From IMG/VR virus record IMGVR_UViG_3300014204_000112, positions 1 through 64,000 of that record: a stretch of DNA of 64,000 nucleotides. The stretch is one strand, 5' to 3'. The first letter of the stretch is position 1. Each line of letters opens with the position of its first letter. This document shows positions 1 to 36,595 of the stretch, piece after piece. This stretch comes from a virus (lineage: Duplodnaviria; Caudoviricetes). Below the pieces are notes generated by a model. That model saw only the letters and a list, made by a program, of their open reading frames with translations. It did no database searches and had not been told where the DNA came from. A program made the position numbers and the translations under genes.

Positions 1-3000
1 GTTCCAGATGAGCCTGATGTACCAGAATTTCCAGACGAACCTGATGTTCCTGAGCTACCGCTTGTTCCTGAAGAACCTGATGTTCCAGAAGAACCAGAGG
101 AACCGCTCGAGCCAGATGATCCACTTGTTCCTGAACTTCCTGATGTACCACTCGATCCGGATGATCCGCTTGATCCTGAAGAACCAGAAGATCCTGATGT
201 TCCAGATGAACCTGAAGTTCCAGATGATCCACTTGAACCGGAAGAACCCGAAGTACCGCTTGATCCACTTGTTCCGGAAGATCCAGATGAACCTGATTTG
301 CCTGATGATCCGCTTGATCCTGAAGAACCTGATGATCCGCTTGTTCCGGAAGATCCTGAAGTACCAGATGAACCGGATGTTCCTGATGAACCTGATGAAC
401 CTGAAGAACCGCTTGTTCCTGAGCTGCCGGATGTTCCAGAAGATCCAGATGATCCGCTTGTTCCGCTCGACCCAGATGTTCCGGACGATCCACTTGAACC
501 TGACGAACCGGATGTTCCCGAAGAACCTGAGGTACCTGAACTTCCAGAAGTTCCAGAAGATCCCGATGATCCACTTGTTCCACTTGAACCTGACGTACCT
601 GATGAGCCAGACGTTCCGCTTGATCCCGATTTTCCACTTGAACCAGATGAACCGCTAGAGCCTGATGTGCCTGAAGATCCTGAGGTACCTGAACTTCCTG
701 AAGAACCTGATGTACCACTAGAGCCTGATGTTCCAGAACTTCCACTTGTTCCGCTAGAACCTGACGAACCACTTGTTCCTGAACTGCCGGACGTTCCGGA
801 TGATCCTGATGTTCCAGATGAACCTGATTTTCCACTTGAACCAGATGAACCTGAGCTACCTGAACTTCCGCTTGTTCCGCTTGAACCTGAGGTGCCTGAA
901 TTTCCAGATGAGCCTGATGTTCCACTCGAACCACTTGTTCCAGAAGAGCCAGAGCTTCCTGATGATCCACTTGAACCTGAGGTGCCTGAAGAGCCGGAGG
1001 TACCAGAACTTCCGCTAGTTCCGCTAGAACCAGAAGAGCCTGATGAGCCAGAGGTACCGCTCGAACCGGAAGTACCGCTTGAACCACTTGTACCAGAACT
1101 TCCGCTAGTTCCGCTTGACCCTGAGGTACCTGAGTTTCCTGAAGAACCTGACGTACCGGATGAACCTGATGTTCCTGATGATCCGGATTTTCCAGAAGAA
1201 CCACTCGAACCTGAACTACCTGAGGAGCCAGAAGTTCCGCTTGAACCAGAAGAACCAGATGAACCACTTGTTCCTGAACTTCCAGATGTTCCAGAAGAGC
1301 CTGACGTGCCTGAGGAACCGGATGAGCCTGATGAACCACTTGTTCCTGAGCTTCCTGATGTTCCACTAGACCCACTTGATCCTGATGTACCTGAAGAACC
1401 AGAAGTTCCGCTTGAACCGGATGTGCCTGAGTTACCAGAAGAACCTGAAGTTCCGCTTGAACCGGAAGTTCCAGATGAACCTGATTTACCAGAAGATCCA
1501 CTAGATCCAGAAGAGCCAGATGATCCACTTGATCCTGAAGTACCGCTTGATCCGCTTGTTCCTGAAGAACCAGAAGTCCCTGAATTTCCAGATGATCCGC
1601 TCGTTCCTGAGCTTCCTGATGTACCTGATGTGCCCGATGATCCACTAGTTCCTGACGAACCTGAAGTTCCACTCGACCCACTAGAGCCAGATGTTCCAGA
1701 AGAACCTGATGTGCCGGAGGAGCCGCTTGTTCCTGATGAGCCTGAGGTTCCTGAATTACCAGAAGAACCGGAAGTACCTGATGATCCGCTAGTTCCAGAA
1801 GAACCAGATGTACCGGACGATCCTGATTTACCAGAAGAACCAGAAGAACCTGACGAACCGCTGGATCCTGAAGTTCCAGATGATCCGCTAGTTCCAGATG
1901 AGCCAGAAGTTCCGCTAGAACCACTTGAACCAGATGTTCCGCTTGATCCACTTGAACCGGAAGTTCCAGATGATCCACTAGTTCCTGACGAACCTGAAGT
2001 TCCGCTCGACCCACTAGAGCCCGAAGTTCCACTTGACCCGCTAGTTCCTGAGCTTCCTGATGTACCGCTTGAACCTGAGGAACCGGAAGTTCCTGAGTTA
2101 CCTGAAGAGCCTGATGTACCGGACGACCCACTCGAGCCTGAAGAACCGGAAAAACCTGATGTGCCGCTTGATCCTGATTTTCCAGAAGAGCCTGACGTTC
2201 CAGAGGATCCGCTTGAACCACTAGAACCAGAAGTACCGCTTGAACCGCTAGTACCAGATGAGCCTGACGTACCGCTCGAACCGGAAGATCCGGAAGTTCC
2301 AGATGATCCACTAGTTCCTGAGCTTCCTGATGTACCAGATGATCCACTTGATCCTGAAGTTCCCGAAGAACCGGATTTACCAGAAGATCCACTAGATCCG
2401 GAAGAGCCAGATGAGCCGCTTGAGCCTGAAGAACCTGAAGTTCCAGAAGACCCGCTTGAGCCGGAAGTTCCGGATGACCCACTAGATCCAGAGGTTCCTG
2501 AATTTCCGCTAGAACCTGATGTGCCAGATGATCCGCTTGTTCCACTTGATCCTGAAGTTCCCGAAGAACCGGATTTACCAGAAGATCCACTAGATCCGGA
2601 AGAGCCAGATGAGCCGCTTGAGCCTGAAGAACCTGAAGTTCCAGAAGAACCAGATGTGCCGGACGATCCGCTTGTGCCGGACGAACCTGATGTACCAGAT
2701 GATCCGCTTGAACCTGAAGTTCCAGATGAACCACTTGAGCCGGAAGAACCGGAAGTTCCTGAGCTTCCAGATGTACCACTTGAGCTAGAAGTTCCCGATG
2801 ACCCACTAGAGCCCGATGTTCCGCTTGAGCCGCTTGTGCCGGAAGAACCTGATGTACCTGACGAACCACTAGAACCTGATGTTCCAGAATTTCCAGATGA
2901 TCCAGAAGTACCACTTGAACCTGAAGAGCCTGAAGTTCCGGAAGAACCGCTTGTTCCGCTTGAGCCAGACGATCCTGATGTTCCGCTTGAGCCAGACGTT

Positions 3001-6000
3001 CCTGAACTGCCACTTGTTCCACTAGAACCAGAAGTTCCTGAATTTCCAGAAGAACCAGAAGTACCTGAGCTTCCAGACGTTCCACTCGAACCGGATTTAC
3101 CGGATGACCCGCTTGAACCAGAACTTCCTGATGAACCTGAAGATCCAGACGACCCAGATGATCCCGATGTACCTGACGAACCACTAGAACCTGATGTTCC
3201 GGAAGAACCGGAAGTACCACTTGATCCTGACGTACCTGACGACCCTGAACTACCAGAGGTTCCGGATGATCCGCTTGTTCCACTTGATCCTGATGTACCA
3301 GATGAACCACTTGTTCCGCTTGAACCAGATGTTCCAGATGATCCACTTGAACCTGAAGTACCACTTGATCCTGAGCTTCCACTTGTTCCAGAAGAACCAG
3401 AAGTTCCGGAGGAACCTGAGGTACCTGAACTTCCAGAAGTACCACTTGAACCTGAAGAACCTGAGCTGCCAGAAGTACCAGATGAACCACTTGTTCCAGA
3501 AGAACCTGATGTGCCTGAGCTTCCAGAAGATCCAGATGAACCTGACGTTCCACTCGATCCACTTGTTCCAGAGCTTCCTGACGTACCAGAAGAACCAGAA
3601 GTTCCACTTGACCCGGACGAGCCAGATTTTCCGTTTGAACCACTTGAACCCGATGATCCACTTGATCCTGACGAGCCTGAGCTTCCGCTTGTTCCAGAAG
3701 AACCAGAAGTACCGCTTGACCCAGATTTGCCAGATGATCCACTGGATCCACTTGAACCTGAAGTTCCACTTGAACCTGAGCTTCCAGATGTACCGCTTGA
3801 TCCACTTGTTCCAGAAGATCCAGAAGTTCCGCTTGAACCAGATGAACCTGAAGAACCTGAGGTTCCAGATGATCCACTTGTTCCTGAAGAGCCAGAAGTA
3901 CCTGATGATCCACTTGTTCCGCTTGAACCAGATGAACCTGAAATACCAGATGATCCACTTGTTCCAGAGCTTCCTGACGTACCAGAAGAACCAGAAGTTC
4001 CACTTGACCCGCTTGAGCCTGAGCTACCTGAAGTTCCACTTGACCCTGAAGTTCCTGAGCTTCCAGATGTACCAGATGACCCACTTGATCCTGAACTTCC
4101 AGATGTGCCAGACGAACCTGATGTACCACTCGATCCACTAGTTCCAGATGAGCCAGATGTTCCACTTGACCCAGACGATCCTGATGTACCGCTCGAGCCT
4201 GAGCTTCCGCTTGTTCCAGAAGATCCTGACGTTCCTGACGATCCTGATGTACCAGAAGAACCAGAAGTTCCTGAAGAACCACTAGTTCCACTCGAGCCAG
4301 AAGTTCCAGAAGACCCACTTGATCCTGATGAACCTGATGTACCAGATGATCCGCTTGTTCCTGAGCTACCTGATGTACCACTAGAACCTGACGTTCCAGA
4401 ACTTCCACTTGATCCACTAGTACCTGAAGAACCTGATGATCCTGATTTTCCACTTGAACCGGAAGAACCGCTTGAGCCTGAAGATCCTGATGAACCTGAT
4501 GAACCTGACGAACCGGAAGTTCCAGAACTTCCACTCGTTCCGCTTGATCCACTAGAACCACTTGTTCCTGAAGATCCTGACGTGCCAGATGATCCACTAG
4601 AACCAGAACTACCAGAAGTTCCTGACGATCCTGAAGTTCCTGATGATCCACTTGACCCAGAAGAGCCAGATGTTCCCGAGGACCCGCTTGTTCCAGATGA
4701 ACCTGAAGTTCCAGATGAACCACTTGAACCAGAACTACCAGAAGAGCCCGAAGACCCGCTTGTTCCTGAAGACCCTGATGACCCGCTGGTTCCAGATGAA
4801 CCTGACGTTCCGCTTGAACCGCTTGTACCTGAAGAACCGGAAGTTCCAGATGAACCACTTAAACCAGAACTACCTGATGTACCCGAAGAACCTGAGGTAC
4901 CACTTGAACCAGACGTTCCTGATGATCCACTCGATCCAGATGAACCTGAAGTTCCAGATGATCCGCTTGATCCACTAGTTCCTGAGCTTCCAGATGTACC
5001 AGAAGAACCACTCGAACCTGATTTTCCAGATGAACCACTAGAGCCTGAACTTCCAGAAGAACCAGAAGAACCGCTTGAACCGGAAGAACCAGATGTTCCG
5101 CTTGAACCTGACGAACCTGAGCTACCAGAAGTACCTGAACTTCCACTTGTTCCACTCGATCCTGAGCTACCAGAAGATCCACTTGTTCCACTCGATCCTG
5201 ACGTTCCTGCCGAACCGCTTGTTCCACTCGAACCAGATGATCCTGAACTACCAGAAGAACCGCTTGTTCCGCTTGATCCAGATGAACCACTAGAACCTGA
5301 AGTACCACTCGACCCGCTTGTTCCAGAGCTTCCAGAAGAACCACTTGAACCACTCGAACCTGAGGTTCCGCTTGAACCAGATGAACCGGAAGTACCAGAT
5401 GATCCACTTGTTCCAGAGCTTCCACTTGACCCAGAAGATCCACTAGACCCACTTGATCCTGAGCTACCAGATGAGCCTGAGGTACCGCTAGATCCACTTG
5501 AACCGGAAGATCCAGATGTACCTGAACTACCACTTGTTCCAGAGCTTCCAGAAGTTCCAGATGAACCAGATGATCCGCTTGAACCTGACGTTCCTGAACT
5601 ACCTGAAGAACCAGATGTTCCAGATGAACCACTAGAACCACTTGTACCACTACTGCCAGACGAACCTGATGTACCGCTAGATCCTGAAGTTCCTGATGAT
5701 CCAGATGTACCAGAGGAACCACTTGAGCCTGAAGATCCTGATGTACCAGATGAACCTGAGGTTCCACTTGATCCACTAGAACCTGATGTGCCGCTAGAGC
5801 CAGATGTTCCAGAAGAACCGCTAGTTCCGCTTGAACCAGACGTTCCTGAACTACCCGAAGTTCCACCTGAACCTGATGAGCCAGAAGAACCTGAGGTACC
5901 AGATGATCCACTTGTTCCAGAAGAACCTGACGTTCCTGAGCTACCAGATGAACCTGAGGTTCCACTTGATCCAGAACTACCAGAGGAACCACTTGAGCCA

Positions 6001-9000
6001 CTTGTACCACTACTACCAGATGAGCCTGATGTACCACTAGACCCTGACGTTCCCGATGAACCGGAAGTGCCTGAACTACCAGAATTACCAGAAGAGCCAC
6101 TTGAACCACTTGATCCTGAAGATCCAGAGATTCCACTTGACCCACTTGTTCCAGAGCTTCCAGATGTACCTGAAGAGCCAGAAGAACCAGATGATCCACT
6201 AATGCCGCTTGATCCTGAAGATCCAGATGTGCCGGACAAACCTGAACTACCAGATGTTCCAGATGAACCACTTGAACCTGAGGTACCTGAGCTTCCAGAG
6301 GATCCGCTTGTTCCACTAGAACCAGATGATCCTGATTTTCCAGAAGAACCACTCGATCCAGAAGATCCAGAGCTGCCAGAAGAACCTGAAGACCCGGAGC
6401 TTCCGGAGGTTCCGCTTGATCCGCTAGAACCAGAAGAACCACTTGATCCACTTGTACCGCTACTACCAGAAGAGCCTGACGTACCGCTTGAACCGGAGGT
6501 ACCTGAACTACCTGAAGTTCCACTCGAACCTGATGTACCACTCGATCCTGAAGATCCAGATGACCCGCTTGTTCCGCTTGAACCTGACGTACCTGAACTT
6601 CCACTTGTTCCTGATGAACCTGGGCTGCCAGATGATCCACTTGAGCCACTCGTACCACTACTACCAGAAGAACCTGATGTACCGCTAGATCCTGAAGTTC
6701 CAGATGAACCTGATGTGCCTGACGAACCAGAAGAACCGCTTGATCCACTTGAACCTGAACTACCGCTTATTCCTGAAGATCCAGAAGTACCTGAACTTCC
6801 AGACGATCCACTTGAACCTGATGTTCCTGACGAGCCAGAAGTTCCACTTGACCCTGACGTACCACTTGATCCTGAACTTCCGCTTGATCCAGACGTACCG
6901 GAAGAACCTGAGGTTCCGCTTGAACCAGACGTGCCGGAACTTCCAGAAGAACCACTTGATCCAGAAGTACCTGAACTTCCAGAAGTTCCTGATGAACCGG
7001 AAGAACCTGATTTACCTGAGGATCCACTAGATCCACTTGAACCTGAGCTTCCTGAAGAACCACTTGATCCAGATGATCCACTTGTTCCACTAGATCCTGA
7101 AGTACCGGATGAACCAGAAGTTCCACTTGATCCAGAAGATCCTGAGCTACCAGAGGTTCCTGATGAACCACTTGAACCAGACGATCCACTTGATCCAGAT
7201 GTTCCAGAACTTCCTGATGTTCCACTAGATCCTGAACTGCCTGAAGAACCGGACGTTCCACTAGATCCTGAAGAACCAGAAGAGCCAGATGAACCGCTAG
7301 TTCCAGAAGAACCTGAAGTTCCAGAGCTTCCAGATGAACCACTTGAACCTGATGTACCTGAACTACCAGATGTACCCGAAGAACCTGAGGTTCCACTAGA
7401 TCCTGAAGAACCAGATGATCCGCTTGTTCCTGAAGAACCACTTGAACCAGAACTACCTGAGGTCCCTGATGAACCGGAAGTACCGCTTGAACCTGACGTT
7501 CCGGATGACCCACTAGATCCGCTAGAACCAGATGTACCGCTTGATCCTGAGGTACCTGAGCTTCCAGAAGATCCAGATGAACCTGAACTACCTGATGTAC
7601 CACTTGAGCCTGATGTTCCAGAAGAACCCGATGTACCTGAACTGCCAGACGTTCCAGAAGAACCTGAGCTACCAGATGTACCGCTCGAACCTGAAGTTCC
7701 TGAGCTTCCACTAGTACCGCTAGATCCTGAAGAACCTGAACTTCCTGAAGAACCATTTGATCCACTCGTTCCTGAAGAACCAGATGTTCCTGAGGATCCG
7801 CTTGTACCTGAAGAACCTGACGTACCGCTTGATCCACTCGAGCCAGATGAACCGCTAGAACCAGATGTTCCAGATGAACCACTAGATCCTGAAGTACCTG
7901 AAGAACCAGAAGTTCCACTTGACCCGCTTGACCCTGAGTTTCCAGAAGAGCCAGAGGTTCCTGAACTTCCAGACGTACCAGATGAGCCGCTTGAGCCAGA
8001 ATTACCTGAACTACCAGAGGTTCCGCTCGATCCACTTGTTCCTGAAGAACCAGAAGAACCTGAGTTTCCAGATGAACCCGATGTTCCACTTGAACCACTT
8101 GAGCCACTATTTCCTGAGGAGCCTGATGTACCACTTGACCCACTAGTTCCAGATGAACCTGAAGTGCCAGATGATCCCGAAGTACCACTTGAACCGCTTG
8201 ATCCTGACGATCCCGAATTTCCGCTTGAACCTGAGGTTCCGGAAGAACCTGACGTACCAGAACTTCCTGAGGACCCTGAATTACCGGAAGAACCGGATGT
8301 TCCTGAGGATCCACTAGAACCGCTTGAGCCAGAATTTCCTGACGAACCAGAAGTTCCACTAGAGCCAGAAGAACCGGAATTACCTGACGAGCCTGAAGTT
8401 CCACTTGAGCCACTTGAACCAGAAGTTCCAGAGTTACCAGAAGAACCTGAGGAGCCGGATGATCCAGAGTTTCCTGAACTTCCAGAAGTTCCACTTGAAC
8501 CGGACGATCCTGAATTACCAGAAGAACCTGATGTTCCTGACGAACCACTTGACCCGCTTGAGCCAGAATTGCCGCTCGATCCTGAAGTTCCAGAAGAACC
8601 CGATGTTCCGCTAGAACCAGACGAACCGCTTGTGCCTGAGGAACCCGAATTTCCGGAAGACCCTGATGTTCCCGAAGAACCAGAAGAGCCGGAGTTTCCT
8701 GACGAACCACTTGAACCGGAAGATCCCGAGTTTCCTGAGGAGCCGGAGGTTCCTGAAGACCCACTTGATCCTGAAGTTCCCGAGGTTCCAGATTTTCCAG
8801 ATGAGCCTGACGTACCGGAAGAACCGGAGGAGCCAGATGAACCCGAATTTCCAGAACTACCGGAGGTTCCACTTGATCCAGATGACCCAGATGTTCCAGA
8901 ATTGCCGGACGAACCTGAGGTTCCGGAAGAACCTGAATTGCCTGAAGAACCGCTTGTTCCTGAGGAACCAGACGTTCCGCTTGAACCACTTGAACCTGAA

Positions 9001-9330
9001 GTTCCAGAGTTACCAGAAGAACCTGATGTTCCACTTGAACCGCTATTTCCTGAGGATCCTGATGTGCCGCTTGATCCTGAGGTTCCTGAACTTCCACTTG
9101 AACCAGATGAACCTGAAGTTCCTGAACTTCCACTTGACCCACTTGAGCCAGAATTGCCTGCCGAACCTGAAGTTCCGCTAGAACCACTTGATCCAGAATT
9201 GCCTGAACTACCGCTAGTTCCTGAAGAACCACTGGATCCAGAATTGCCAGACGAACCTGACGTACCACTTGAACCGGAGTTTCCTGAGCTTCCGCTTGTT
9301 CCTGAGCTTCCTGACGAACCAGACGTTCCG
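1..9330. repeat. Degenerate 9-bp tandem repeat (~1035 units) encoding Gly-X-Ser
   Basis: On the + strand CC recurs every 9 nt (Gly codons on the minus strand). Longer near-exact duplications exist, e.g. 2343-2450 = 2541-2648. Confidence 0.97.
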
Positions 9331-9452
9331 CCTCCAGCAGTATCACTCCAAAAGACGTTACCATCGTCATCGATCACTAGGACCTTGATCTTGGTTGCAT
9401 CTTTCTGTACGTGGCTGAGATCGACTTGCTTAATCTGTAACTTATTTGACAT
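1..9452 (-). CDS. Giant Gly-X-Ser (GTS/GSS/GNS) repeat protein, >3150 aa, 3' end outside window; probable virion fibre/appendage
   Basis: ATG at 9452 reads MSNKLQIKQVDLSHVQKDATKIKVLVIDDDGNVFWSDTAGGGTSGSSGSSGTSG. No stop is seen down to position 1, which is why the ORF track omits it. It is co-oriented with its neighbours and has an ATAAATA late promoter 28 nt upstream. Confidence 0.92.
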   Translation of the reverse strand, partial: MSNKLQIKQVDLSHVQKDATKIKVLVIDDDGNVFWSDTAGGGTSGSSGSSGTSGSSGNSGSSGTSGSSGNSGSSGSSGTSGSSGNSGSSGSSGTSGSAGNSGSSGSSGSSGTSGSSGSSGSSGTSGSSGTSGSSGNSGSSGTSGSSGNSGTSGSSGSSGTSGSSGTSGSSGNSGSSGTSGSSGNSGTSGSSGSSGTSGSSGNSGSSGSSGSSGTSGSSGKSGTSGTSGSSGSSGTSGSSGNSGSSGSSGSSGNSGSSGSSGTSGSSGNSGSSGTSGSSGSSGTSGSSGTSGSSGNSGSSGSSGSSGTSGSSGNSGSSGSSGTSGSSGNSGSSGSSGSSGNSGTSGSSGSSGTSGSSGNSGSSGSSGTSGSSGNSGSSGSSGSSGTSGSSGNSGSSGSSGTSGSSGTSGSSGNSGSSGSSGSSGTSGSSGTSGSSGTSGSSGTSGSSGNSGSSGSSGTSGSSGNSGSSGSSGTSGSSGTSGSSGNSGSSGSSGTSGSSGTSGSSGNSGSSGSSGTSGSSGTSGSSGSSGTSGSSGSSGSSGSSGTSGSSGTSGSSGTSGSSGTSGSNGSSGSSGSSGSSGTSGSSGTSGSSGTSGSSGSSGTSGSSGTSGSSGTSGSSGTSGSSGSSGSSGSSGTSGSSGTSGSSGSSGSSGTSGSSGTSGSSGTSGSSGSSGSSGTSGSSGSSGSSGTSGSSGTSGSSGTSGSSGSSGSSGTSGSSGTSGSSGSSGSSGSSGTSGSSGSSGSSGTSGSSGTSGSSGSSGSSGSSGTSGSSGSSGSSGTSGSSGTSGSSGTSGSSGSSGSSGSSGSSGSSGSSGKSGSSGSSGTSGSSGTSGSSGSSGSSGTSGSSGTSGSSGTSGSSGSSGSSGTSGSSGTSGSSGTSGSSGSSGSSGTSGSSGISGSSGSSGSSGSSGSSGTSGSSGTSGSSGTSGSSGSSGTSGSSGSSGSPGSSGTSGSSGTSGSSGTSGSSGSSGSSGTSGSSGTSGSSGTSGSSGTSGSSGSSGTSGSSGSSGSSGSSGTSGSSGSSGSSGSSGSSGSSGSSGKSGSSGSSGTSGSSGSSGTSGSSGSSGTSGSSGLSGTSGSSGSSGISGSSGSSGSSGTSGSSGTSGSSGISGSSGSSGSSGSSGNSGSSGTSGSSGTSGSSGTSGSSGSSGTSGSSGSSGSSGSSGTSGSSGSSGTSGSSGTSGSSGTSGSSGSSGSGGTSGSSGTSGSSGTSGSSGTSGSSGTSGSSGSSGTSGSSGTSGSSGSSGSSGTSGSSGTSGSSGTSGSSGSSGTSGSSGSSGTSGSSGSSGTSGSSGSSGSSGTSGSSGTSGSSGTSGSSGSSGSSGTSGSSGSSGSSGSSGSSGSSGSSGTSGSSGTSGSSGSSGTSGSSGSSGSSGSSGTSGSSGTSGSSGSSGSSGTSGSSGSSGSSGSSGTSGSAGTSGSSGTSGSSGSSGSSGTSGSSGTSGSSGSSGSSGTSGSSGSSGSSGSSGSSGSSGSSGKSGSSGSSGTSGSSGTSGSSGSSGTSGSSGSSGSSGTSGSSGTSGSSGTSGSSGLSGSSGTSGSSGTSGSSGTSGSSGTSGSSGSSGTSGSSGSSGSSGSSGSSGTSGSSGTSGSSGTSGSSGSSGSSGTSGSSGTSGSSGSSGSSGTSGSSGTSGSSGSSGTSGSSGTSGSSGSSGSSGSSGSSGSSGSSGKSGSSGSSGTSGSSGSSGTSGSSGTSGSSGTSGSSGTSGSSGSSGSSGTSGSSGTSGSSGTSGSSGTSGSSGTSGSSGTSGSSGSSGTSGSSGSSGTSGSSGTSGSSGTSGSSGTSGSSGSSGSSGTSGSSGTSGSSGTSGSSGSSGSSGTSGSSGTSGSSGTSGSSGISGSSGSSGTSGSSGTSGSSGTSGSSGTSGSSGSSGSSGTSGSSGTSGSSGTSGSSGSSGTSGSSGSSGSSGKSGSSGTSGSSGTSGSSGSSGSSGSSGSSGSNGKSGSSGSSGTSGSSGTSGSSGTSGSSGTSGSSGSSGSSGTSGSSGTSGSSGTSGSSGSSGSSGTSGSSGTSGSSGTSGSSGTSGSSGSSGTSGSSGSSGTSGSSGTSGSSGTSGSSGTSGSSGTSGSSGSSGTSGSSGTSGSSGTSGSSGSSGTSGSSGSSGSSGSSGSSGSSGSSGKSGSSGTSGSSGTSGSSGNSGTSGSSGTSGSSGTSGSSGTSGSSGSSGTSGSSGTSGSSGSSGTSGSSGNSGTSGSSGSSGTSGSSGTSGSSGTSGSSGSSGTSSSSGTSGSSGTSGSSGSSGSSGTSGSSGSSGTSGSSGTSGSSGTSGSSGTSGSSGSSGSSGSSGSSGSSGKSGSSGTSGSSGTSGSSGTSGSSGNSGTSGSSGSSGTSGSSGSSGTSGSSGSSGSSGSSGSSGSSGKSGSSGTSGSSGSSGTSGSSGTSGSSGTSGSSGSSGTSGSSGTSGSSGTSGSSGSSGSSGTSGSSGKSGSSGTSGFSGSSGSSGSSGTSGSSGNSGTSGSSGSSGTSGSSGTSGSSGTSGSSGSSGTSGSSGTSGSSGTSGSSGSSGTSGSSGSSGTSGSSGTSGSSGTSGSSGSSGSSGSSGKSGSSGTSGSSGTSGSSGTSGSSGNSGTSGSSGTSGSSGTSGSSGTSGSSGSSGTSGSSGTSGSSGTSGTSGSSGTSGSSGNSGTSGSSGTSGSSGTSGSSGSSGSSGSSGSSGKSGSSGTSGSSGTSGSSGNSGTSGSSGTSGSSGTSGSSGSSGTSGSSGTSGSSGSSGSSGTSGSSGTSGSSGTSGSSGSSGSSGTSGSSGSSGSSGSSGKSGSSGTSGSSGTSGSSGNSGTSGSSGTSGSSGTSGSSGTSGSSGTSGSSGSSGSSGTSGSSGTSGSSGTSGSSGSSGSSGSSGTSGSSGTSGSSGNSGTSGSSGTSGSSGSSGSSGSSGKSGSSGTSGSSGTSGSSGTSGSSGSSGTSGSSGTSGSSGTSGSSGSSGTSGSSGTSGSSGSSGSSGKSGSSGTSGSSGTSGSSGTSGSSGSSGTSGSSGTSGSSGTSGSSGSSGSSGTSGSSGTSGSSGSSGTSGSSGTSGSSGSSGSSGTSGSSGTSGSSGTSGSSGSSGSSGSSGKSGSSGSSGTSGSSGTSGSSGSSGSSGTSGSSGTSGSSGSSGSSGSSGSSGTSGSSGTSGSSGSSGSSGSSGTSGSSGTSGSSGTSGSSGNSGTSGSSG

Positions 9453-9479
9453 TTAGACCTAACTTCATTTTGCTAAAGT

Positions 9480-9486
9480 TATTTAT
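9480..9486 (-). promoter_or_regulatory. T4-like late promoter (ATAAATA)
   Basis: GATAAATAAC on the minus strand upstream of the ATG at 9452; the same motif precedes many structural genes. Confidence 0.7.
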
Positions 9487-9511
9487 CAGCCCAAATCAAA
9501 TAAACTAGTTA

Positions 9512-10564
9512 CTAGCGATTTTGCTTTGCGTATAAAATGGCTTCTACGTATTTTGCCGAGGCGGAATCCGCTTTTATTTTTGAGAAATCGGCATCGAACG
9601 GATTCTGGTTGATGAATTCTCCCTTGTAGAATAGGGTTCCGTTCTCGTTATTTGTGACACCAGCATTGTGCATGATGTTATGGTTCTCGTACTCAGCCAA
9701 GGTAGACGTTCCCCAACTGAAAGAAAATTCTTTCGATATTCTAGGCTGTGCACCGAGTTTCATTGCATTCCACAGGACTGCCCACAGGTCAGCACACCAT
9801 TTCTGGATAGGATTGTAATCCGTTAATCTCTTATCGATTTCTGCCATTTTAGCATTGACCCACTCCTCAGTTAGTGGAACTGGGCTATTTGCTACTTCTG
9901 CGGACAGAGTCTGTTTAGCTTCAGATATTTCTTGAATACGTTTGGCTCTTTCGGCTGTTTCTCTTTCTGCCATGAATCGATAGAGGGTCAGAGCATCTTG
10001 TTTAACGCTCTTCCAGTAGTCTGCAGTTACTCCCTTCATTAGGTGCTGAGCTCCGCCTGAATTGTTTTGGTTGAACTTCACCAATTCAGGATCAATGTTT
10101 GCAATCTTGCACATTTCCAAGAATAGATCCTCTCCTTTTGAACGAATGTAATCAGAACCTATGTACGAAATAGTATCGCTGAAGTACCAGAAAAGGTCTC
10201 CGTGCATGGAATCAAAATTCGGAAGTTGCCGAAAAATGATGTCTGAATCGTGGTAGAAGATGGTCTCTCCCCTGAGATTTGGGAATTTGACAAAATGTTG
10301 TTCGAGAATGTCCGGCCTCAGTATTGGGATGTACCCGAAATTATCCTTCACCGATTTTGTATAAGAAAAGAATCGAACGTAAGGGTACTTGTTTGCTAAT
10401 GCTGTAAGTTCTGGAGAAGGAGAACCATTATGAGCCCACAGTACTTCTATCCAATTAGGATTTATTCCAACCTTTATGAAATTGTGAATCATTACTTCCA
10501 CTTGCCAATGAAAATATGGGACGTCTGGCTGAGCAGATATGAAAACTACCTTTTTTGTCAACAT
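9512..10564 (-). CDS. GT-A glycosyltransferase resembling peptidyl-serine O-galactosyltransferase / hydroxyproline O-arabinosyltransferase (SERGT1/HPAT-like)
   Basis: N-terminal PYFHWQVEVMIHNF, DxD motif (FYHDSDIIFR), GGAQHL, and C-terminal KWCADLWAVLWNA resemble the recalled YFDWQ / DADMI / WISEMY motifs of that family. Confidence 0.7.
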   Translation of the reverse strand: MLTKKVVFISAQPDVPYFHWQVEVMIHNFIKVGINPNWIEVLWAHNGSPSPELTALANKYPYVRFFSYTKSVKDNFGYIPILRPDILEQHFVKFPNLRGETIFYHDSDIIFRQLPNFDSMHGDLFWYFSDTISYIGSDYIRSKGEDLFLEMCKIANIDPELVKFNQNNSGGAQHLMKGVTADYWKSVKQDALTLYRFMAERETAERAKRIQEISEAKQTLSAEVANSPVPLTEEWVNAKMAEIDKRLTDYNPIQKWCADLWAVLWNAMKLGAQPRISKEFSFSWGTSTLAEYENHNIMHNAGVTNNENGTLFYKGEFINQNPFDADFSKIKADSASAKYVEAILYAKQNR

Positions 10565-10610: not shown

Positions 10611-12644
10611 TTATGGAATGGTGGTCGTAGTAGTAGTTGGAATCACTCCCAACGGTATGGTCACAGTATCGATCAGAACGTTATCTTTGGTGAACGTGTA
10701 TGTTCCAGCGATAGTTGGTATCAATTGGTAGCCAGCATAGTTCAAGTTGAACGTCCATGGCAAGGTCTTGAGAGTATTGATAGGATCTGCAATGTTCGAT
10801 AACGTGTAAGTCACGCTGTAAAGAGCATCCGTGAACGTAACTTCGTACGGTCCACTAGGAGCAGGATTTGCTGTGAACGTTACCGATTTGCTGGTCAATA
10901 TCGTGAAGTCTATCTGGTTGGCAATCGTCGTGGTCGTAGTAGTTGGAGCAGAAGTGGTGGTCGTAGTAGTTGGAGCAGAAGTGGTGGTCGTGGTAGTTGG
11001 GGCAGTAGTTGTAGTCGTTGTCGGAGCTATCGTAGTTGTCGTTGTAGTAGTTGTAGTTATTCCAGACGTGGTGGTCGTAGTTGTAGGAATTGCTGAGATT
11101 GGGACGTCTATTTCGTACTCGCACGATGTGTTGTACGTGAACGTGTAAACTCCGATCACGGTAGGAACTTCTGCAAAATGAACGTCTGATAGATCGAACG
11201 TCCAAGGTAATGAAATCGAGAATCCGAGCAACCCAGTTAAATCGTGATTGCCGCCTAATTGATCTACAAAGGTTACGGTATGTGGTCCCACTGGAGTTCC
11301 CGTAAATGTGATCGTGTTAGGATTATTGCCATAAGGTAAAGTGAAGTTAATTGCATTTGGCGGACAGTAACCTGGAGCAGTAGTAGTTGTAGTCGTCGGA
11401 GGTTGAGTGGTTACTGGAACTCCCTTTATCAAGTAAAATGGGCTGAATGCTGTTACTTGTGCATAAATCGATCTGGTTGCATAATCTGGAGCGTACAGTC
11501 CACCTAGAATGGTCTCATCCACTAAGACTGATCCTACTTGGTGGAATATTCTTACCAAATCGAAATCTGGTTCGGTCATCGATTGTGGAAGTGTGAATTT
11601 CACTATAGCTCCAGCATCATAGACAGTATTCACATCGTGAATTGAATAAGTCAGAACGCTATTTTCCAAGTAATACCCAGAAGGAAGTGTGTACCCTCCG
11701 CTGGTAGTTGGAGTAGGCAAAGAACAAATGGTAATAGGTCCAGCAGCAGCAGTCGTTCCAATTATTTCTATTCCGAATTGTGGGAATATTATTGGCACAG
11801 TATCTGCTATTTCCGTGATGCAAGAGTATCCTGCTTGCGAGCAGTACGGATCCACCGTGAAGTAATGCAATGTAACCGTATCGTAATTCTCTAAGGTCCA
11901 TCCAGCAATCGTTGGATTGAAGTACAGAACATCGGACGAGTCTATCGATCTGAGAGTAGAGGCAGTAGTTCCTCCGTCCTTGCTGAAATAAGCTGGCAAA
12001 GTTTTAACAGCATCTCCTACTCTGATCTGAAGACCATTGATGAATAGTAACATGTTGCTTGATGCTAACGGAGCCGGAACCAAGAATAAGCCAGCAGAAA
12101 TAGGAGATCCATCAATTGAAACAGCATCGGCAACGGCTGACATTATTACTTCCTGCATGCATGGAGTTGCCCCGTAACCTGCTCCGGCCAATAAAGTCCA
12201 ACCTGTGCTCGTCAACCAAACGTAAACTCCCTCCACCCTATTTCCTTGGGCTTCGATGTAGACCAATTCCCCTGGAATTCCGGTCGTAGGCAAAAGCCCA
12301 TAAACTCTCAATCTTAACCTTAACGTATCAGTAACATCGTCCGCTATGAAATTAGCAGCGGTCACTGATCCGCTTGGATGCAGGTGTATCGTTGTAGGAT
12401 AACGTCCGTCTTGTAATTGAGCACCGTACACTCTCAGTCCATTCCTAACCGTCACCCAATTCGCATCGATATTGCTGATGTCCACAGTGACTTCAGACGT
12501 TCCCTGTTCGTAATTTATGGACGTCAAGAATTCCTTTATCGCAGAAGTCAGAGTTTGAAAATTAAAATTTGACAGCTCTACTATCGAACTAGTGCTCGTA
12601 TTGCTTAAGGTTTTAACTGATGTGAGCTTTACTTCAACCGACAT
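10611..12644 (-). CDS. Virion-associated protein with poly-Thr (mucin-like) linkers and a duplicated C-terminal beta domain
   Basis: 677-aa ORF with PTTTTT tracts and two copies of a GP..VTF.D..LPWTF.L..PT..G.YTFT domain. Confidence 0.65.
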   Translation of the reverse strand: MSVEVKLTSVKTLSNTSTSSIVELSNFNFQTLTSAIKEFLTSINYEQGTSEVTVDISNIDANWVTVRNGLRVYGAQLQDGRYPTTIHLHPSGSVTAANFIADDVTDTLRLRLRVYGLLPTTGIPGELVYIEAQGNRVEGVYVWLTSTGWTLLAGAGYGATPCMQEVIMSAVADAVSIDGSPISAGLFLVPAPLASSNMLLFINGLQIRVGDAVKTLPAYFSKDGGTTASTLRSIDSSDVLYFNPTIAGWTLENYDTVTLHYFTVDPYCSQAGYSCITEIADTVPIIFPQFGIEIIGTTAAAGPITICSLPTPTTSGGYTLPSGYYLENSVLTYSIHDVNTVYDAGAIVKFTLPQSMTEPDFDLVRIFHQVGSVLVDETILGGLYAPDYATRSIYAQVTAFSPFYLIKGVPVTTQPPTTTTTTAPGYCPPNAINFTLPYGNNPNTITFTGTPVGPHTVTFVDQLGGNHDLTGLLGFSISLPWTFDLSDVHFAEVPTVIGVYTFTYNTSCEYEIDVPISAIPTTTTTTSGITTTTTTTTTIAPTTTTTTAPTTTTTTSAPTTTTTTSAPTTTTTTIANQIDFTILTSKSVTFTANPAPSGPYEVTFTDALYSVTYTLSNIADPINTLKTLPWTFNLNYAGYQLIPTIAGTYTFTKDNVLIDTVTIPLGVIPTTTTTTIP
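10925..11090. repeat. Thr-rich coding repeats (27-bp unit PTTTTTTSA)
   Basis: gtggtcgtagtagttggagcagaagtg repeated in tandem. Confidence 0.85.
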
Positions 12645-14025: not shown

Positions 14026-16101
14026 TTAACGGTTTATCGCAATGAATGGAGTATTTAATCTTGGCCTACAATTATCAATGATGGCAAGAGTGGATTCATC
14101 CCTAACAAACAATTGGCTTATCACGAACTCGTGATCTTCTGTTTGAATCATCGTATTGAACAGCCTGACGTTCGCAAGCCAGTAATTCGCTCCGCATATC
14201 GCGAAATTAGCAGTAGTTTCGAAATCGAATTTTCCTATGTTCTGAGTTCCAGTATTAAGAACTGGTTCTATCCCATTGAAGTTCTTCACGTTAGCTGGAT
14301 CCTGAGAGAAAGAGTAAACGTTGACTTCTAACTGTCCATACTGAGCGGAAACAGGAACGGTCAGGGCATACCATTTTCCATATTCGATCGTACCTACCAC
14401 AAACGTGTACGTTGTAGAATTTATCTGTACGTATATCGTTAGGGTAGGCGAGGCAGAATCCACAATAGAGCCGGAGATGATAAGACCTTTCTGCTGAGTA
14501 TCATCATATCCTCTGAACAGAGTCACGACCTGTGTGCCCTTAATGAAATTCACAAGGGAACAGTACGTCATGTTCGGAGTTTCGCTTGTCGATGCAACCT
14601 TCTTGTAAACGATAGCATTGTCAGATTGCATGAAACTAACAGTTCCAGAATCTTCAAGAATGTCAACTCTTTCGGCAGTTTTGAATCCGAGAGTTTTGTA
14701 ACCTTCAATGACGACGTATTTTCCTAGAGCAGAGTACGAATCCTTAGGACCATTCGTTTTTATCCTAGGTTTCGAAGTTTCTCCTATTTTGAAATTGTAG
14801 TCTCCGGTTTCTAAAGAATTGGCAAGCCAAGCAGCAAACAAATCGCTATCTTCGTATCCCCATAATTCCTTTGGTGAAGTACCAGTAAGAATCTGGTCAG
14901 TAGTACGACCAAATGAAGAAAGTGAGTAAACAGTTTGAGTCGGTTTTACTGGGCTCATATCATAATAGTACTCAATGAGTTTGGAGTAATTGAAAGTGAT
15001 GTCCTGAATTTTATTTTTCAATTCTGGGTGTAAAGCCCTACGAGTCTCATCGAACCTGTCAGAAATGGTAGTGAACTGTTGCTTGTCCAATGCATCCAAA
15101 GCCTGCGAAGCAGCTTCGTTTCCGAATAACTGGTCGGACGACATGATGAGGTTATCTAGGAACTGCCTATCTTCTGGTTTCATGAACGTATCGATGTTCG
15201 GATGGAACTTGGTGAGCTGAATTTTCCAGTACATAGGTTCCATCATGAACCCCCTGTACAAGTATGATCCTTGGATTTCGTACATCCTATTCAATAAAGG
15301 AAAGTAGAGGTAGTCTTTCTTTCTTGGTTGGGTGTTTCTTCCAAACATCTGTTGAAAGTAAACATTATCTACGTGAACTTCGAATGGTATTTCGAAATCC
15401 ACTCCAAATTCTTCGAATCTCGGCTTGTTATCTGGGAACTTATTTTCCGGAACCACTACTTTGATACACTTACGATTAGTGGTTTTGAAGAGGGTCCATT
15501 CTTTGAAGATGAAATCTCCACCATCCCTATCCGGTTCGGTCTTGAAGTACACTACTTCGTGGCCGAATATCTTGTTAGTCTGTAAGCTAAGTTCATGCGC
15601 GATCCCAACTGCTGTGCCTGCATCGTACGGTTTGAATAGAGCGTCCTTCTCAGCAGTTATCATTGGACATTTTTCATCGGAACACTGAACTGGAGGACTG
15701 TAATCCTGCCCTTCGCTCTGTTTAGTTTCGACTCCGATCTTTATCCATTCGATCTTTAGTGATTCGGCTAATTGATCGTATGATTCATCATCGTATTCAT
15801 ACTTGACTTCGAAGAAAATATCAGATTCTTCGAATTCTAGGAGTTCGAGTTCGGTCAGGTTAGTCGGCGTAAATGTGTACCATAAGGACCAATTAGCCCT
15901 ATCTGTTGAGTATCTAAGTTTGCGAGTGATGTTAGGTTCCAAAGCACTGTCAAGATCGAGCTCTTCCTTATACCCATTCGGTTTCGTTAAGCGTACTGCT
16001 TTACGAACGGGTTCGCCAGTCGTGAAAATTCTGTAATTCTTGCTGTACCCGATCGAATTTTTTGCCGGGTCTGGAACAATCTTGTATGTTACTTTCTGCA
16101 T
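14026..16101 (-). CDS. Neck/head-completion protein (T4 gp14-like domain) with extra domains
   Basis: GHEVVYF...FGVDF...PRKKDYLYFPLLNRMYEI resembles the gp14 P.EGDLIYFP...LFEI motif. Confidence 0.6.
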   Translation of the reverse strand: MQKVTYKIVPDPAKNSIGYSKNYRIFTTGEPVRKAVRLTKPNGYKEELDLDSALEPNITRKLRYSTDRANWSLWYTFTPTNLTELELLEFEESDIFFEVKYEYDDESYDQLAESLKIEWIKIGVETKQSEGQDYSPPVQCSDEKCPMITAEKDALFKPYDAGTAVGIAHELSLQTNKIFGHEVVYFKTEPDRDGGDFIFKEWTLFKTTNRKCIKVVVPENKFPDNKPRFEEFGVDFEIPFEVHVDNVYFQQMFGRNTQPRKKDYLYFPLLNRMYEIQGSYLYRGFMMEPMYWKIQLTKFHPNIDTFMKPEDRQFLDNLIMSSDQLFGNEAASQALDALDKQQFTTISDRFDETRRALHPELKNKIQDITFNYSKLIEYYYDMSPVKPTQTVYSLSSFGRTTDQILTGTSPKELWGYEDSDLFAAWLANSLETGDYNFKIGETSKPRIKTNGPKDSYSALGKYVVIEGYKTLGFKTAERVDILEDSGTVSFMQSDNAIVYKKVASTSETPNMTYCSLVNFIKGTQVVTLFRGYDDTQQKGLIISGSIVDSASPTLTIYVQINSTTYTFVVGTIEYGKWYALTVPVSAQYGQLEVNVYSFSQDPANVKNFNGIEPVLNTGTQNIGKFDFETTANFAICGANYWLANVRLFNTMIQTEDHEFVISQLFVRDESTLAIIDNCRPRLNTPFIAINR

Positions 16102-16118: not shown

Positions 16119-16125
16119 TATTTAT
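16119..16125 (-). promoter_or_regulatory. Late promoter (ATAAATA)
   Basis: CGATAAATAAC upstream of the ATG at 16101. Confidence 0.7.
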
Positions 16126-16158
16126 CGTAGGTCAATCAGAAATGGGGACTCTAATGCA

Positions 16159-16653: not shown

Positions 16654-19098
16654 TTAGAAGTAATCGCTATCGCCATTAGAAACGAGTTCAGTACCAAATC
16701 CTGAAGGAGCGGTCGTAGTCGTTGTAGTTGGCGAACCGGTAGTCGTAGTGGTTGTAGTTGGCGAACCGGTAGTCGTAGTGGTTGTAGGTCCAGTAGTGGT
16801 TGTTGTAGTAGGCTGTGTGGTAGTGGTTGTAGTAACTCCCTGTGGGTGAACATCCTGTGCCGTTTGGTGAGCAGTAATGTATGAACCGGAAATAGTTACT
16901 TCAATAACATTTCCATCAGAATTAGTAGGGTGTACGTAATTCAAAAAATCATAAATTGATACATTGCTTTCCAGTGCACAAGTTAATCCATCAGCAATAT
17001 TCTGACGATTTCCATGAAGCTGTAACTGAGGAAGGCTAGAGCCGGTGCCATCATAGTATCCAAATTTTGCATAAATCGAAGATTGGTCGATTGGCTGCCA
17101 ATCTACTGAAGATGATCCACCATTCCATGAATAACCCATTGCAAACGGTCTCAACAGATAACCAGTGGTCATCGTTGGAGATGGAGTGGTTAAAGAAACT
17201 CCAAACTTCATTTTTTCTGAAACGTTTACGTTTGGCCAGTGATCTGGTATTCCCCTAACTATTACTTGGTAAGCTTCGCTTCCTATTGGATGTTGCATTG
17301 CTGACCAAGCAGTATCTGCAATATCTCCAACTGAAACCGACAGAGCTGCATACGGATTAGAATAGTATGGCGGCGATACTCTACCAGTAGTGGTAGAAAC
17401 GGTCCAGTTCGATATTAAGAATTTTACTGTGAAGTTCACAACATTTCCGATCTTAGTCATTATTCCACTTTGACCAGAAATAGTTGGGTTAACATTGGTC
17501 AACCCAGTCGCAACAGTTGGCAGAGTTCCAAAATAAACAGTAGGAGTAAATGTCACTTCTTGATATTCATCCAACGTGTTAGAATCACTACTATTCTTAG
17601 TAGGAACTGTTCCAGTTGAAACTGGGAATGGAATTGCACTGTTTAGCCTGGAATCTTTTACCTTTAGGGCATAATTCGTGCTGCTAGAACCTATGATAAC
17701 TTCCTTCGTAATATCACTAGCATAAAGGCCTAGATCTGAATCTGATTCAGCGGTCAAACCCAATGAATTGAATGTTATTCCAAGAACTTCATTCTGGACA
17801 GTCACGTTCAATTTATCGAATAGAACCCTAGTTATGGAATTGCCGGTGTCTGACTTAATAATGAGGCTGTCGTTCCAACGGTTTAGATCGAATCCCATGG
17901 CTATCTTGTGAGATACCGAAAGAGAATCTGTGCTTTTCAGATGAAGTCCATCAAGTCCGATTCCGGTTAAGGCAACGTCAGGATTAGAAGTTACTGATTC
18001 AAGGTTCTTATTGCTGAACCCGAATTGAAGTATTGAGTTATTTCCTTGCTGATCTAAATTCTTTTTGTTTATTGACCATGTGAATTTAGAGTTTAATGCA
18101 GGTCGAGTGGTGCTGTCATTCGAATGAAGGTTGAAATCTGCCAAAATTGCACTCTGTCCAGGAAGTTCAGTAGCTGTCAACCTGTACTTACGTACTCGTA
18201 AATTCTGATATGTTGGGCTTATAACATAAGTCGCTCCAGAATCAGCAGAATTAAGGTATTCTCGTATGTCATCGACTGACCCTAATTCCAATTGATGCCT
18301 ATAACCAGTAGAATCAATAAATTGATCTGCTTCAATAGCTGCACTGGATGCATTGAAAAATGAGTAAAGTGAAAGAATCGATGAGTATGGGAATGCTGTA
18401 TTGAGATTCGAAATGTTCGTTCCCAACCTATCTACTGCAATTTCAATGTTGTACCCATTCAGGCCAGGAGAACCAACTGCTTTTACCGTCTTTACTGTGT
18501 ATGGGTCAAAATTAAACATGACTCCCTGAGCATTCTGCGAACCGTCAGTTGTCAATCTCCAGTTAGGGGGATACGACAAGTAATAATCGGCAGGCTTAGA
18601 AGCGAAACCGATTGTATTTCGATCGAGCCCTTGTGAATTCTTTACTAAAACTGCAATACGAGCAGGCGGAGCTTGTGAAATTATACCAGTAGCCCAAGGC
18701 TGTTGATCAAGATTTATGCTTCTAATGAGAGCATCGAAGTCGGTCACAAGTTCCCAAACAGTACCGTCAGTTGTTTTTGTGTAAATTCCATTGTATGTAG
18801 TTGCACCAACTGTCACTTCTCCAACATAATAGTCCCCGATTACTGAATCGGCAGGAGAGGAAGCAGAAAGATCTAATTGAATTCCGCTCGGAACTGACCA
18901 CATTACTGATCCATTCTTACCAGTCAATCCAATCGGACCTATTGGTCCAGGTCCACCGGCTTCGCCAGTATCACCCTTGTCTCCAGTTTGACCAACTCCG
19001 AGAGCAATCAGTTGATTGAAGTTGAAATTTAGCTTGCTCGCTAAATCCGATTGACTATCAATCGCGAATATCTCTTTAAGATTGATGTTGACCGCCAT
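16654..19098 (-). CDS. Tail fibre-like protein with short collagen segment and poly-Thr tail
   Basis: GQTGDKGDTGEAGGPGPIGPIGLTGKNG collagen stretch, FTPT...TKIGNVV fibre motif, and C-terminal TTTTTTGSP repeats. Confidence 0.7.
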   Translation of the reverse strand: MAVNINLKEIFAIDSQSDLASKLNFNFNQLIALGVGQTGDKGDTGEAGGPGPIGPIGLTGKNGSVMWSVPSGIQLDLSASSPADSVIGDYYVGEVTVGATTYNGIYTKTTDGTVWELVTDFDALIRSINLDQQPWATGIISQAPPARIAVLVKNSQGLDRNTIGFASKPADYYLSYPPNWRLTTDGSQNAQGVMFNFDPYTVKTVKAVGSPGLNGYNIEIAVDRLGTNISNLNTAFPYSSILSLYSFFNASSAAIEADQFIDSTGYRHQLELGSVDDIREYLNSADSGATYVISPTYQNLRVRKYRLTATELPGQSAILADFNLHSNDSTTRPALNSKFTWSINKKNLDQQGNNSILQFGFSNKNLESVTSNPDVALTGIGLDGLHLKSTDSLSVSHKIAMGFDLNRWNDSLIIKSDTGNSITRVLFDKLNVTVQNEVLGITFNSLGLTAESDSDLGLYASDITKEVIIGSSSTNYALKVKDSRLNSAIPFPVSTGTVPTKNSSDSNTLDEYQEVTFTPTVYFGTLPTVATGLTNVNPTISGQSGIMTKIGNVVNFTVKFLISNWTVSTTTGRVSPPYYSNPYAALSVSVGDIADTAWSAMQHPIGSEAYQVIVRGIPDHWPNVNVSEKMKFGVSLTTPSPTMTTGYLLRPFAMGYSWNGGSSSVDWQPIDQSSIYAKFGYYDGTGSSLPQLQLHGNRQNIADGLTCALESNVSIYDFLNYVHPTNSDGNVIEVTISGSYITAHQTAQDVHPQGVTTTTTTQPTTTTTTGPTTTTTTGSPTTTTTTTGSPTTTTTTAPSGFGTELVSNGDSDYF

Positions 19099-35489: not shown

Positions 35490-35496
35490 TATTTAT
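35490..35496 (-). promoter_or_regulatory. Late promoter (ATAAATA) overlapping the endonuclease stop codon
   Basis: GAATAAATAA. Confidence 0.6.
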
Positions 35497-36147: not shown

Positions 36148-36154
36148 TATTTAT
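36148..36154 (-). promoter_or_regulatory. Late promoter for the homing endonuclease
   Basis: TTGATAAATAG 20 nt upstream of the ATG at 36128. Confidence 0.6.
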
Positions 36155-36175
36155 CAACGGTTAGGTACAAAAAAG

Positions 36176-36595
36176 TTACAAGGTATAAATCTCAGAATCG
36201 CCAGTAAAACTCAGTGACACGAATTCGACCCTTTCTCCCTTTCCTATGTGCTTATGAATCTTCTTGAATTCCTTTGCGTACCCGTTCTTGACTATCTGCG
36301 TGAAATACGCAAAAGCATTGTTCGATTTTTCCTCGCTGAAGTTCTTCCAGTATCGTAATAGATCTAACAGGGCTGACTGGATGCAATCTTCCTCGTCTAA
36401 CGGATTTGAGAAGTGCAATCTCTGTACTGCCCTATTTGCCAGGAGAACGAAGTAATCAATAGCTTTGGGGGATAGTTCACCAGCTTTATGCTGGTATCCG
36501 GTTTCTTCGTTGAGGTGACCGTACTTGCACCGTATTATCTCGTTGGTGAAGTCTCGGTTGTTGATATAAAATTTGTTATCCTTTGCTTTGGACAT
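36176..36595 (-). CDS. Late-transcription sigma factor (T4 gp55-like)
   Basis: YINNRDF, EEDCIQ and NFSEEKSNNAFAYFTQI match gp55-family motifs. Confidence 0.85.
   Translation of the reverse strand: MSKAKDNKFYINNRDFTNEIIRCKYGHLNEETGYQHKAGELSPKAIDYFVLLANRAVQRLHFSNPLDEEDCIQSALLDLLRYWKNFSEEKSNNAFAYFTQIVKNGYAKEFKKIHKHIGKGERVEFVSLSFTGDSEIYTL

Follow-up and report, generated by a model that had tools for sequence, protein, structure and literature searches.

A putative collagen-like virion fibre with more than a thousand near-perfect Gly-X-Ser triplets, encoded by an uncultured T4-like jumbo phage

Collagen-like fibres as such are already known from phages, and the collagen triple helix has two recognised kinds of stabiliser, namely charge pairs, as in the Scl2 collagen, and proline or hydroxyproline at the X and Y positions of the Gly-X-Y triplet. 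In bacterial collagens, the mean proline content at X is 19-31% (PMC8968730), and EPclA, a prophage fibre of Escherichia coli O157:H7, forms dumbbell-shaped trimers; its collagen part has a melting temperature of 42 °C, and its C-terminal domain acts as the trimeriser (PMC3368898). The present study concerns a fibre gene at the very start of the IMG/VR virus record IMGVR_UViG_3300014204_000112, a linear record of 213,922 bp (CheckV completeness 83%), the first 64 kb of which were analysed and are hereafter called the window. The source is best read as an uncultured T4-like jumbo phage and the gene as one of its late structural genes, of which the 5' 9.45 kb are seen. With some reserve, we favour the view that the product is a trimeric collagen-like virion fibre, the shaft of which is a collagen-type triple helix.

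The window begins at base 1 of the record, inside the fibre gene, and the C-terminal part of the protein is therefore missing. The visible part of the gene has the following features:

3..9452, minus strand: fibre gene, 3,150 codons, with its ATG at 9450-9452 and its 3' end cut off at record base 1
9336..9452, minus strand: conserved N-terminal module of ~39 residues, predicted to form a beta-hairpin
6..9329, minus strand: Gly-X-Ser array, a putative and virtually proline-free collagen-like shaft of 1,036 triplet positions
2784..2786, minus strand: AGC (Ser) codon, the sole break in the Gly register
2253..2738, minus strand: youngest part of the array, a 198-nucleotide higher-order repeat in 2.5 copies, containing the longest exact repeat (108 nucleotides)

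After a unique N-terminus of 39 residues, the triplets run in register to the contig end, with Gly held at 1,035 of the 1,036 positions and Ser occupying Y at 1,030 of them (99.4%). The triplets comprise 641 GSS, 329 GTS, 35 GNS, and 17 GKS, together with a few GIS, GLS, GFS, GSA, GSN, GSP, and GSG, and the composition of the whole protein is correspondingly narrow (S 1682, G 1040, T 331, N 39, K 22, P 1, D 6, E 0, R 0). The recount thus bears out the original prediction, which was made from the DNA letters and had described a protein of more than 3,150 residues with about 1,035 near-perfect Gly-X-Ser triplets, a single Gly-to-Ser break exactly where the AGC codon lies, and almost no proline or charged residues. 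Gly-(Thr/Asn)-Ser and Gly-Ser-Ser triplets tend to alternate, giving a two-triplet period and none longer. The 17 GKS triplets lie between 294 and 8798 (minus strand), with every in-array Lys codon being AAA, and in the distal third of the array they are spaced 22-40 triplets apart. This spacing, together with the 198-nucleotide higher-order unit, suggests that the array has grown via duplicated units of 22 triplets, each carrying one Lys.

The missing C-terminus was also sought at the other end of the record (~213,640-213,922), where a non-coding tandem array of two alternating 17-nucleotide units (AACTTGACCTTGCCGCA / AACTTGGCCCAGTCTAA) was found and no Gly-X-Ser sequence; both contig ends therefore stop in repeats. 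Likewise, tblastn searches of the whole 214-kb record with the C- and N-terminal domains of the related fibres described below gave no match except to the N-terminal module.

The minus-strand Gly-X-Ser frame is a genuine protein gene. An open frame proves nothing about coding in this case, since the repeat alone leaves three of the six frames largely open, and the evidence comes from how the array is written. Ser at Y is encoded by TCN codons at 720 positions and by AGY codons at 310, with all six Ser codons in use, and Gly is written with all four of its codons. In-register blocks of 90 nucleotides share 60% identity in DNA and 82% in protein. Summed over the triplet, amino-acid entropy amounts to 1.34 bits for the minus frame, whereas the open antisense frame reaches 3.71 and the remaining four frames 6.5-7.5; the pattern is thus far from random. 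Codon use, entropy, and block identity thus agree with the strand originally assigned to the gene. The contrary view, in which the antisense Pro-(Glu/Asp/Leu/Val)2 product is the real one or the DNA is a non-coding repeat or an assembly artefact, is scarcely credible. The plus frame 1..9456 is likewise open, and gene callers pick the antisense strand in related records; however, the antisense frame has 2.8 times the entropy of the minus frame, and switching between TCN and AGY preserves Ser in the minus frame only. Moreover, the N-terminal module, like the N- and C-terminal globular domains of the relatives, is contiguous with the Gly-X-Ser frame alone, and the gene runs in the direction of the entire 37-kb late operon and has a promoter-like box of its own. 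As for an artefact, the contig does terminate within the array, and gaps or frameshifts occur in the arrays of some related assemblies, but the array DNA is nearly devoid of exact repeats (two of at least 45 nucleotides in 9.3 kb, of 60 and 108 nucleotides), which excludes a collapsed or inflated tandem repeat, and independent metagenomes yield the same architecture.

The expectation that gene callers would report the antisense Pro/Glu/Asp open reading frame instead was confirmed in three related JGI and NCBI records (L025-L027, related to locus L004), in which the antisense strand is annotated over the array (e.g., a 2,545-residue antisense call at L026 11127-18764) and the true N-terminal domain is left uncalled. 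Because standard gene callers annotate the antisense strand over such arrays, proteins of this kind are largely missing from protein databases. In an exact look-up, neither the sense nor the antisense product of the window was present in a collection of 15 billion proteins. One of the three assemblies contains an N gap and another contains frameshifts inside the array, and since array gaps or frameshifts affect several of the related assemblies, the exact triplet counts given here carry assembly uncertainty.

The N-terminal module could be aligned across eight relatives and is 76% identical to the N-terminus of a 300-residue protein in L004. AlphaFold predicted it as a hairpin with strands at residues 21-27 and 33-39 (predicted local distance difference test, pLDDT, ~70), and it probably anchors the protein to the virion. 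A search with the N-terminal module, a check proposed at the outset, gave no hit among 50,697 phage records, cultured or deposited, at a limit as permissive as E <= 10; nor was the module found in the giant proteins of a 5.8-billion-protein set.

Searching IMG/VR with the upstream neighbour gene yielded 15 related loci. In all eight loci whose neighbour is 61-67% identical (L003-L010), a Gly-X-Ser gene follows on the same strand, and these genes share a modular plan of the N-terminal module, a triplet run of variable length, and a distal domain. No triplets separate the module from a 260-residue domain in L004 and L009, 25 or 44 triplets precede a 640-residue domain in the near-identical phages L006 and L007, 55 or more triplets follow the module in L003, and at least 53 (in runs of 27, 13, and 13) extend to the contig end in L010. 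These phages also encode giant Gly-X-Ser genes with other N-terminal domains. Extension of two records gave complete genes. In genome G002, the giant gene (3,011 residues) consists of a 205-residue N-terminal domain, 869 unbroken triplets, and a 198-residue C-terminal domain, and in G001 a complete gene of 2,514 residues has 68, 196, and 290 triplets split by globular domains and a terminal domain of 445 residues. Since a second giant Gly-X-Ser open frame of 2,810 residues lies downstream of the latter (G001:C1 ~77,000-83,700, minus strand; genome 93% complete), G001 has two giant fibres in tandem. The end-domains are shuffled between the fibre genes of the relatives, and the window gene looks like a short-fibre N-terminal module joined straight to a giant array. 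Evolution of the arrays evidently far outpaces that of the flanking sequence: L006 and L007 share 95-98% identity in the flanks, and their arrays can be aligned at ~81% only with many gaps. The contigs of related loci also break inside the arrays.

When the end-domains of the related fibres were searched against PHROGs and Pfam, only families of unknown function and sub-threshold matches (tail protein or hydrolase, ~E 1e-3) were returned. The C-terminal 198 residues of the G002 giant fibre (L019:1123-1716, plus strand) showed a sub-threshold likeness to phage cement proteins (PF22758, E 0.0025; PF09956, E 0.007), a hint that the tip of some of these fibres might be a knob that binds the capsid or resembles a cement protein. 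Directly after this fibre gene, and before the transferase gene described below, lies a gene for a 315-residue Gly_rich_2 (PF21722) protein with a weak match to a 'tail fiber assembly' PHROG (L019:1730-2677, plus strand), and this protein may be a fibre chaperone or partner.

In addition to the conserved fibre architecture, transferase genes are linked to the fibre genes; the conserved N-terminal module, the family of related genes, and the adjacent transferase had not figured in the original prediction. The one in the window is the neighbour immediately upstream:

9512..10564, minus strand: GT-A-fold glycosyltransferase-like protein, phrog_4417, directly upstream of the fibre gene, a position conserved in relatives

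Searches of Pfam, NCBIfam, and PDB sequences gave no match for this protein, so that the fold search was the only informative method. Its AlphaFold model (pLDDT 89.5) has a GT-A glycosyltransferase fold, and Foldseek matched it (probability 1.0, TM 0.4-0.54) to WbbM, the UGGT catalytic domain, the xyloside xylosyltransferase XXYLT1, LgtC, and LARGE1. The top matches were thus GT8-type and other GT-A transferases, with the LH3 collagen glycosyltransferase domain lower in the list, and the DxD motif (D106-S-D108) was invariant in 11 homologues. An identity as an HPAT/SERGT1-type peptidyl O-glycosyltransferase (PF23452) was not supported at the profile level, as none of the 11 homologues matched this family in Pfam at E <= 10; PF23452 is carried by only 10% of the members of one look-alike Atlas cluster.

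The giant fibre gene of G002 is followed, 1.4 kb after its stop, by a gene for a 774-residue protein that combines a GT4 domain with a TIGR04414 domain; G001 has this gene too. The TIGR04414 scores (273.6-276 bits in G002 and 263 bits in G001) exceed the equivalog cut-off of 200. TIGR04414 comprises the Aah/TibC autotransporter O-heptosyltransferases, which are dedicated protein-serine glycosyltransferases. On this genomic evidence, O-glycosylation of the fibre protein is a reasonable proposal, about as likely as not; the candidate enzymes would be the GT-A transferase directly upstream and, in the relatives, the Aah/TibC-type protein serine glycosyltransferase downstream.

Given a genuine gene, the nature of its shaft has to be judged from the pattern of the array and from its relatives. 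The Pfam Collagen profile (PF01391) matched the first 317 residues with 141.5 bits against a cut-off of 27.2, and 75 matches above the cut-off were found along the gene in the record. The strongest argument for a three-residue repeat based on the polyproline-II conformation, as opposed to a random coil, comes from selection, since more than 1,000 triplets of diverged DNA have kept both the Gly register and the Ser at Y. Furthermore, the relatives are laid out like trimeric phage fibres, EPclA among them, with a small anchor at the N-terminus, a shaft whose length varies freely, and a globular domain at the far end. Several observations weigh against this reading. The protein has one proline in 3,150 residues and no charge pairs; as bacterial collagens are known to be stabilised by these two means, it is not certain that a stable triple helix would form. 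The window shows no trimerisation domain, the N-terminal module being very small and the C-terminal end of the protein falling outside the contig; complete relatives carry globular C-terminal domains after the array. The AlphaFold monomer of residues 1-200 is uninformative for the array (pLDDT ~25-30), and the PDB and Pfam matches reflect Gly register and composition only. In addition, the GT-A gene has homologues in phages that lack such arrays (L012-L017; Enterococcus and Lactobacillus phages), so the enzyme need not act on the fibre, and no TibC-type gene was found in the analysed, 83%-complete record. The terminase, baseplate wedge, and PhoH genes that follow the TibC-type gene in G002 are absent from this record too, which makes it most likely that the ~17% of the genome not recovered directly adjoins the array. 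As a separate matter, PDB sequence matches to animal collagens and to the modelled fibril 8zxl were discarded as homologues because only the Gly register matches.

Of the three structures envisaged in the original prediction, the collagen-like filament fits best, given the profile score and the anchor-shaft-knob relatives, while the other two fare differently. Rather unlikely, but a live rival, is a real virion protein whose array lacks intrinsic order and serves as a tether or brush of heavily O-glycosylated Ser and Thr residues, with sugars and hydration instead of chain winding keeping it extended, much as mucins and the stalks of serine-rich-repeat adhesins act. The array lacks proline and charge, Gly/Ser sequences are classic flexible linkers, AlphaFold gives the array no structure, protein glycosyltransferase genes flank the fibre genes, and poly-Thr linkers in the operon indicate that the phage does use Ser/Thr-rich spacers. 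However, disorder needs neither Gly at each third residue nor such constancy of Ser at Y, and the pattern has been kept over 1,036 triplets in DNA that is only 60% self-identical. Moreover, the plain linkers of the same operon are aperiodic poly-Thr runs and not Gly-X-Ser, and the plan of the relatives is that of trimeric fibres. A polyglycine-II or polyproline-II helix bundle, in which the array folds back on itself and perhaps binds ice or another surface, is very improbable. Gly-X-X periodicity with small residues is a hallmark of such bundles too, as in the snow-flea antifreeze protein and the T4-like gp38 adhesin, but known bundles consist of helices of about 10 residues joined by turns, whereas the array shows two-triplet alternation and no periodic turn signals. 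The AlphaFold monomer has no compact fold, and an array length ranging from 0 to more than 1,000 triplets among the relatives is easier to reconcile with a rod or tether than with a bundle of defined form. The suggested roles in ice interaction and shielding likewise found no support. A structure prediction of about 200 residues, proposed earlier as a check, was run on the monomer and was informative for the hairpin of the N-terminal module, though not for the array.

Under the preferred reading of a collagen-type fibre, the N-terminal module would dock the fibre on the virion, at least 1,035 Gly-(Ser/Thr/Asn)-Ser triplets would wind with two other chains into a triple helix, and a distal domain would lie past the contig end. 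The Ser and Thr hydroxyls might be O-glycosylated by phage enzymes, in which case sugars and a hydration network could take the place of proline and charge pairs as the usual collagen stabilisers. As a collagen triple helix (0.286 nm per residue), the visible shaft would measure ~0.89 micrometre, and such a thread could lengthen the reach of a large, slowly diffusing virion and make the first contact with host cells. A bolder version, which we put forward tentatively as possible rather than probable, is a true triple helix without proline or charge pairs, sustained by phage transferases that glycosylate the Y serines and serving as a 'fishing line' of ~1 micrometre or more for host capture, with its length quickly tuned by array recombination.

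The surroundings of the gene were also considered. The relevant features of the window are as follows:

9480..9487, minus strand: late-promoter-like box (T4 type) GATAAATA, 27 nucleotides upstream of the fibre ATG
10611..12644, minus strand: 677-residue virion-module protein with poly-Thr linkers, conserved upstream of the transferase gene
14026..16101, minus strand: neck protein resembling T4 gp14 and head-closure proteins
16654..19098, minus strand: 814-residue virion-module protein with poly-Thr runs
36176..36595, minus strand: gp55-like late sigma factor, which would read the late-promoter boxes

Across the genome, 37 of the 72 [GTA]ATAAATA boxes sit 10-45 nucleotides before the ATG of an open reading frame of at least 100 residues (expected 1.4), as would be the case for late promoters of the T4 type that the gp55-like sigma factor recognises; further boxes include those at 16119-16126 and 36148-36155 (minus strand). 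With such a box upstream and a late sigma factor encoded in the window, the fibre gene is probably expressed late, as originally proposed. The gp14-like neck protein places the gene in a late structural operon, which also holds large baseplate or fibre-type proteins. The nearest cultured relatives of the operon proteins (24-29% identity) are the Bacteroidota jumbo phages PAU, Tenacibaculum PTm1 and pT24, Chryseobacterium MA9V-1/2, and Flavobacterium MaF61. The Collagen profile found no match in five of these (PAU, PTm1, pT24, MA9V-1, and MaF61), and known 'hairy' or head-fibre phages of the group were accordingly ruled out as an explanation.

Each of the 677- and 814-residue proteins contains several poly-Thr runs of 6-9 residues, and their homologues in the relatives have long Thr/Ser linkers and extra domains; both proteins are possible further substrates for glycosylation. 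The open reading frame of the 814-residue protein also contains an ordinary collagen-like segment of 10 triplets with proline and charged residues (18904-18993, minus strand), which is kept at the same place in L004, L005, L008, L009, and L010. The late sigma factor gene is separated from the first large structural gene by a homing-endonuclease gene (35493-36128, minus strand).

Unbroken runs of hundreds to more than 1,000 triplets were encountered neither in the search of metagenomic fibres nor in cultured phages or the literature, and no published description of Gly-X-Ser or proline-free giant phage collagens was found in the literature. Should the shaft prove to be a triple helix, it would be a collagen of natural origin and simple genetics, lacking proline and charge pairs and exceeding type I collagen more than threefold in triplet number; the minimal requirement for cohesion of the collagen helix would then be directly testable, and a new scaffold for recombinant collagen materials would be at hand. 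If it is in addition stabilised by sugars, it would represent a third, sugar-based route to triple-helix stability, and a fibre of ~1 micrometre would be a thread several times longer than the virion. For phage biology, the findings suggest that uncultured jumbo phages bear appendages on the micrometre scale, probably glycosylated, and that proteins of the virion are O-glycosylated by enzymes which the phages themselves encode.

Among described systems, the EPclA-D prophage fibres of E. coli O157:H7 (PMC3368898) resemble the window fibre in having an N-terminal phage-fibre domain, a variable Gly-X-Y shaft, and a C-terminal globular domain, and both are encoded in the late structural region of a phage. 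Unlike in the EPcl proteins, the flanks of the window fibre show no homology to theirs and no match to PF08400 (PfN) or PF06820 (PfC), and a Pfam search of the window protein and its relatives returned Collagen only. Moreover, the EPcl shafts have ~30-135 residues and contain proline, whereas the window shaft has at least 1,035 triplets, one proline, and almost no charge. Closer in triplet chemistry are metagenomic phage fibres ending in a Peptidase_S74 chaperone domain (P0004-P0013), in which X is Thr or Ser, Y is Ser, and proline is 0%. Short proline-free Gly-(Thr/Ser)-Ser runs of this kind are common in such fibres, but the longest runs span 13-93 triplets, are interspersed with globular repeats, and are joined to other N- and C-terminal domains. 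With respect to the transferases, Aah/AIDA-I and TibC/TibA pair a bacterial heptosyltransferase with a serine-hyperglycosylated adhesin and, as in the relatives studied here, the gene for a repetitive, Ser-rich surface protein is accompanied by that of a dedicated enzyme. However, the known substrates of Aah and TibC are beta-helical passenger domains, not Gly-X-Y arrays, and the phage enzyme (G002) differs in being fused to a GT4 domain. Another likeness is with the cuticle collagen of the annelid Riftia (a vestimentiferan), which is also micrometre-scale with a hydroxy amino acid (Thr) at Y, and in which glycosylation of Thr is said to stabilise the helix in place of hydroxyproline; it differs in belonging to an animal extracellular matrix and in still containing proline, and no evolutionary link exists. 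Finally, BclA of the Bacillus anthracis exosporium filament, whose structure (1wck) appeared in the PDB search, likewise has a shaft of Gly-X-(hydroxy amino acid) triplets that varies in length between strains, and it carries a globular trimeric C-terminal domain. Its hydroxy residues are reportedly O-glycosylated. BclA, however, is bacterial and built of tens of (Gly-Pro-Thr)n triplets with proline at X, whereas the window shaft has Ser or Thr at X and Ser at Y and is more than 10 times longer.

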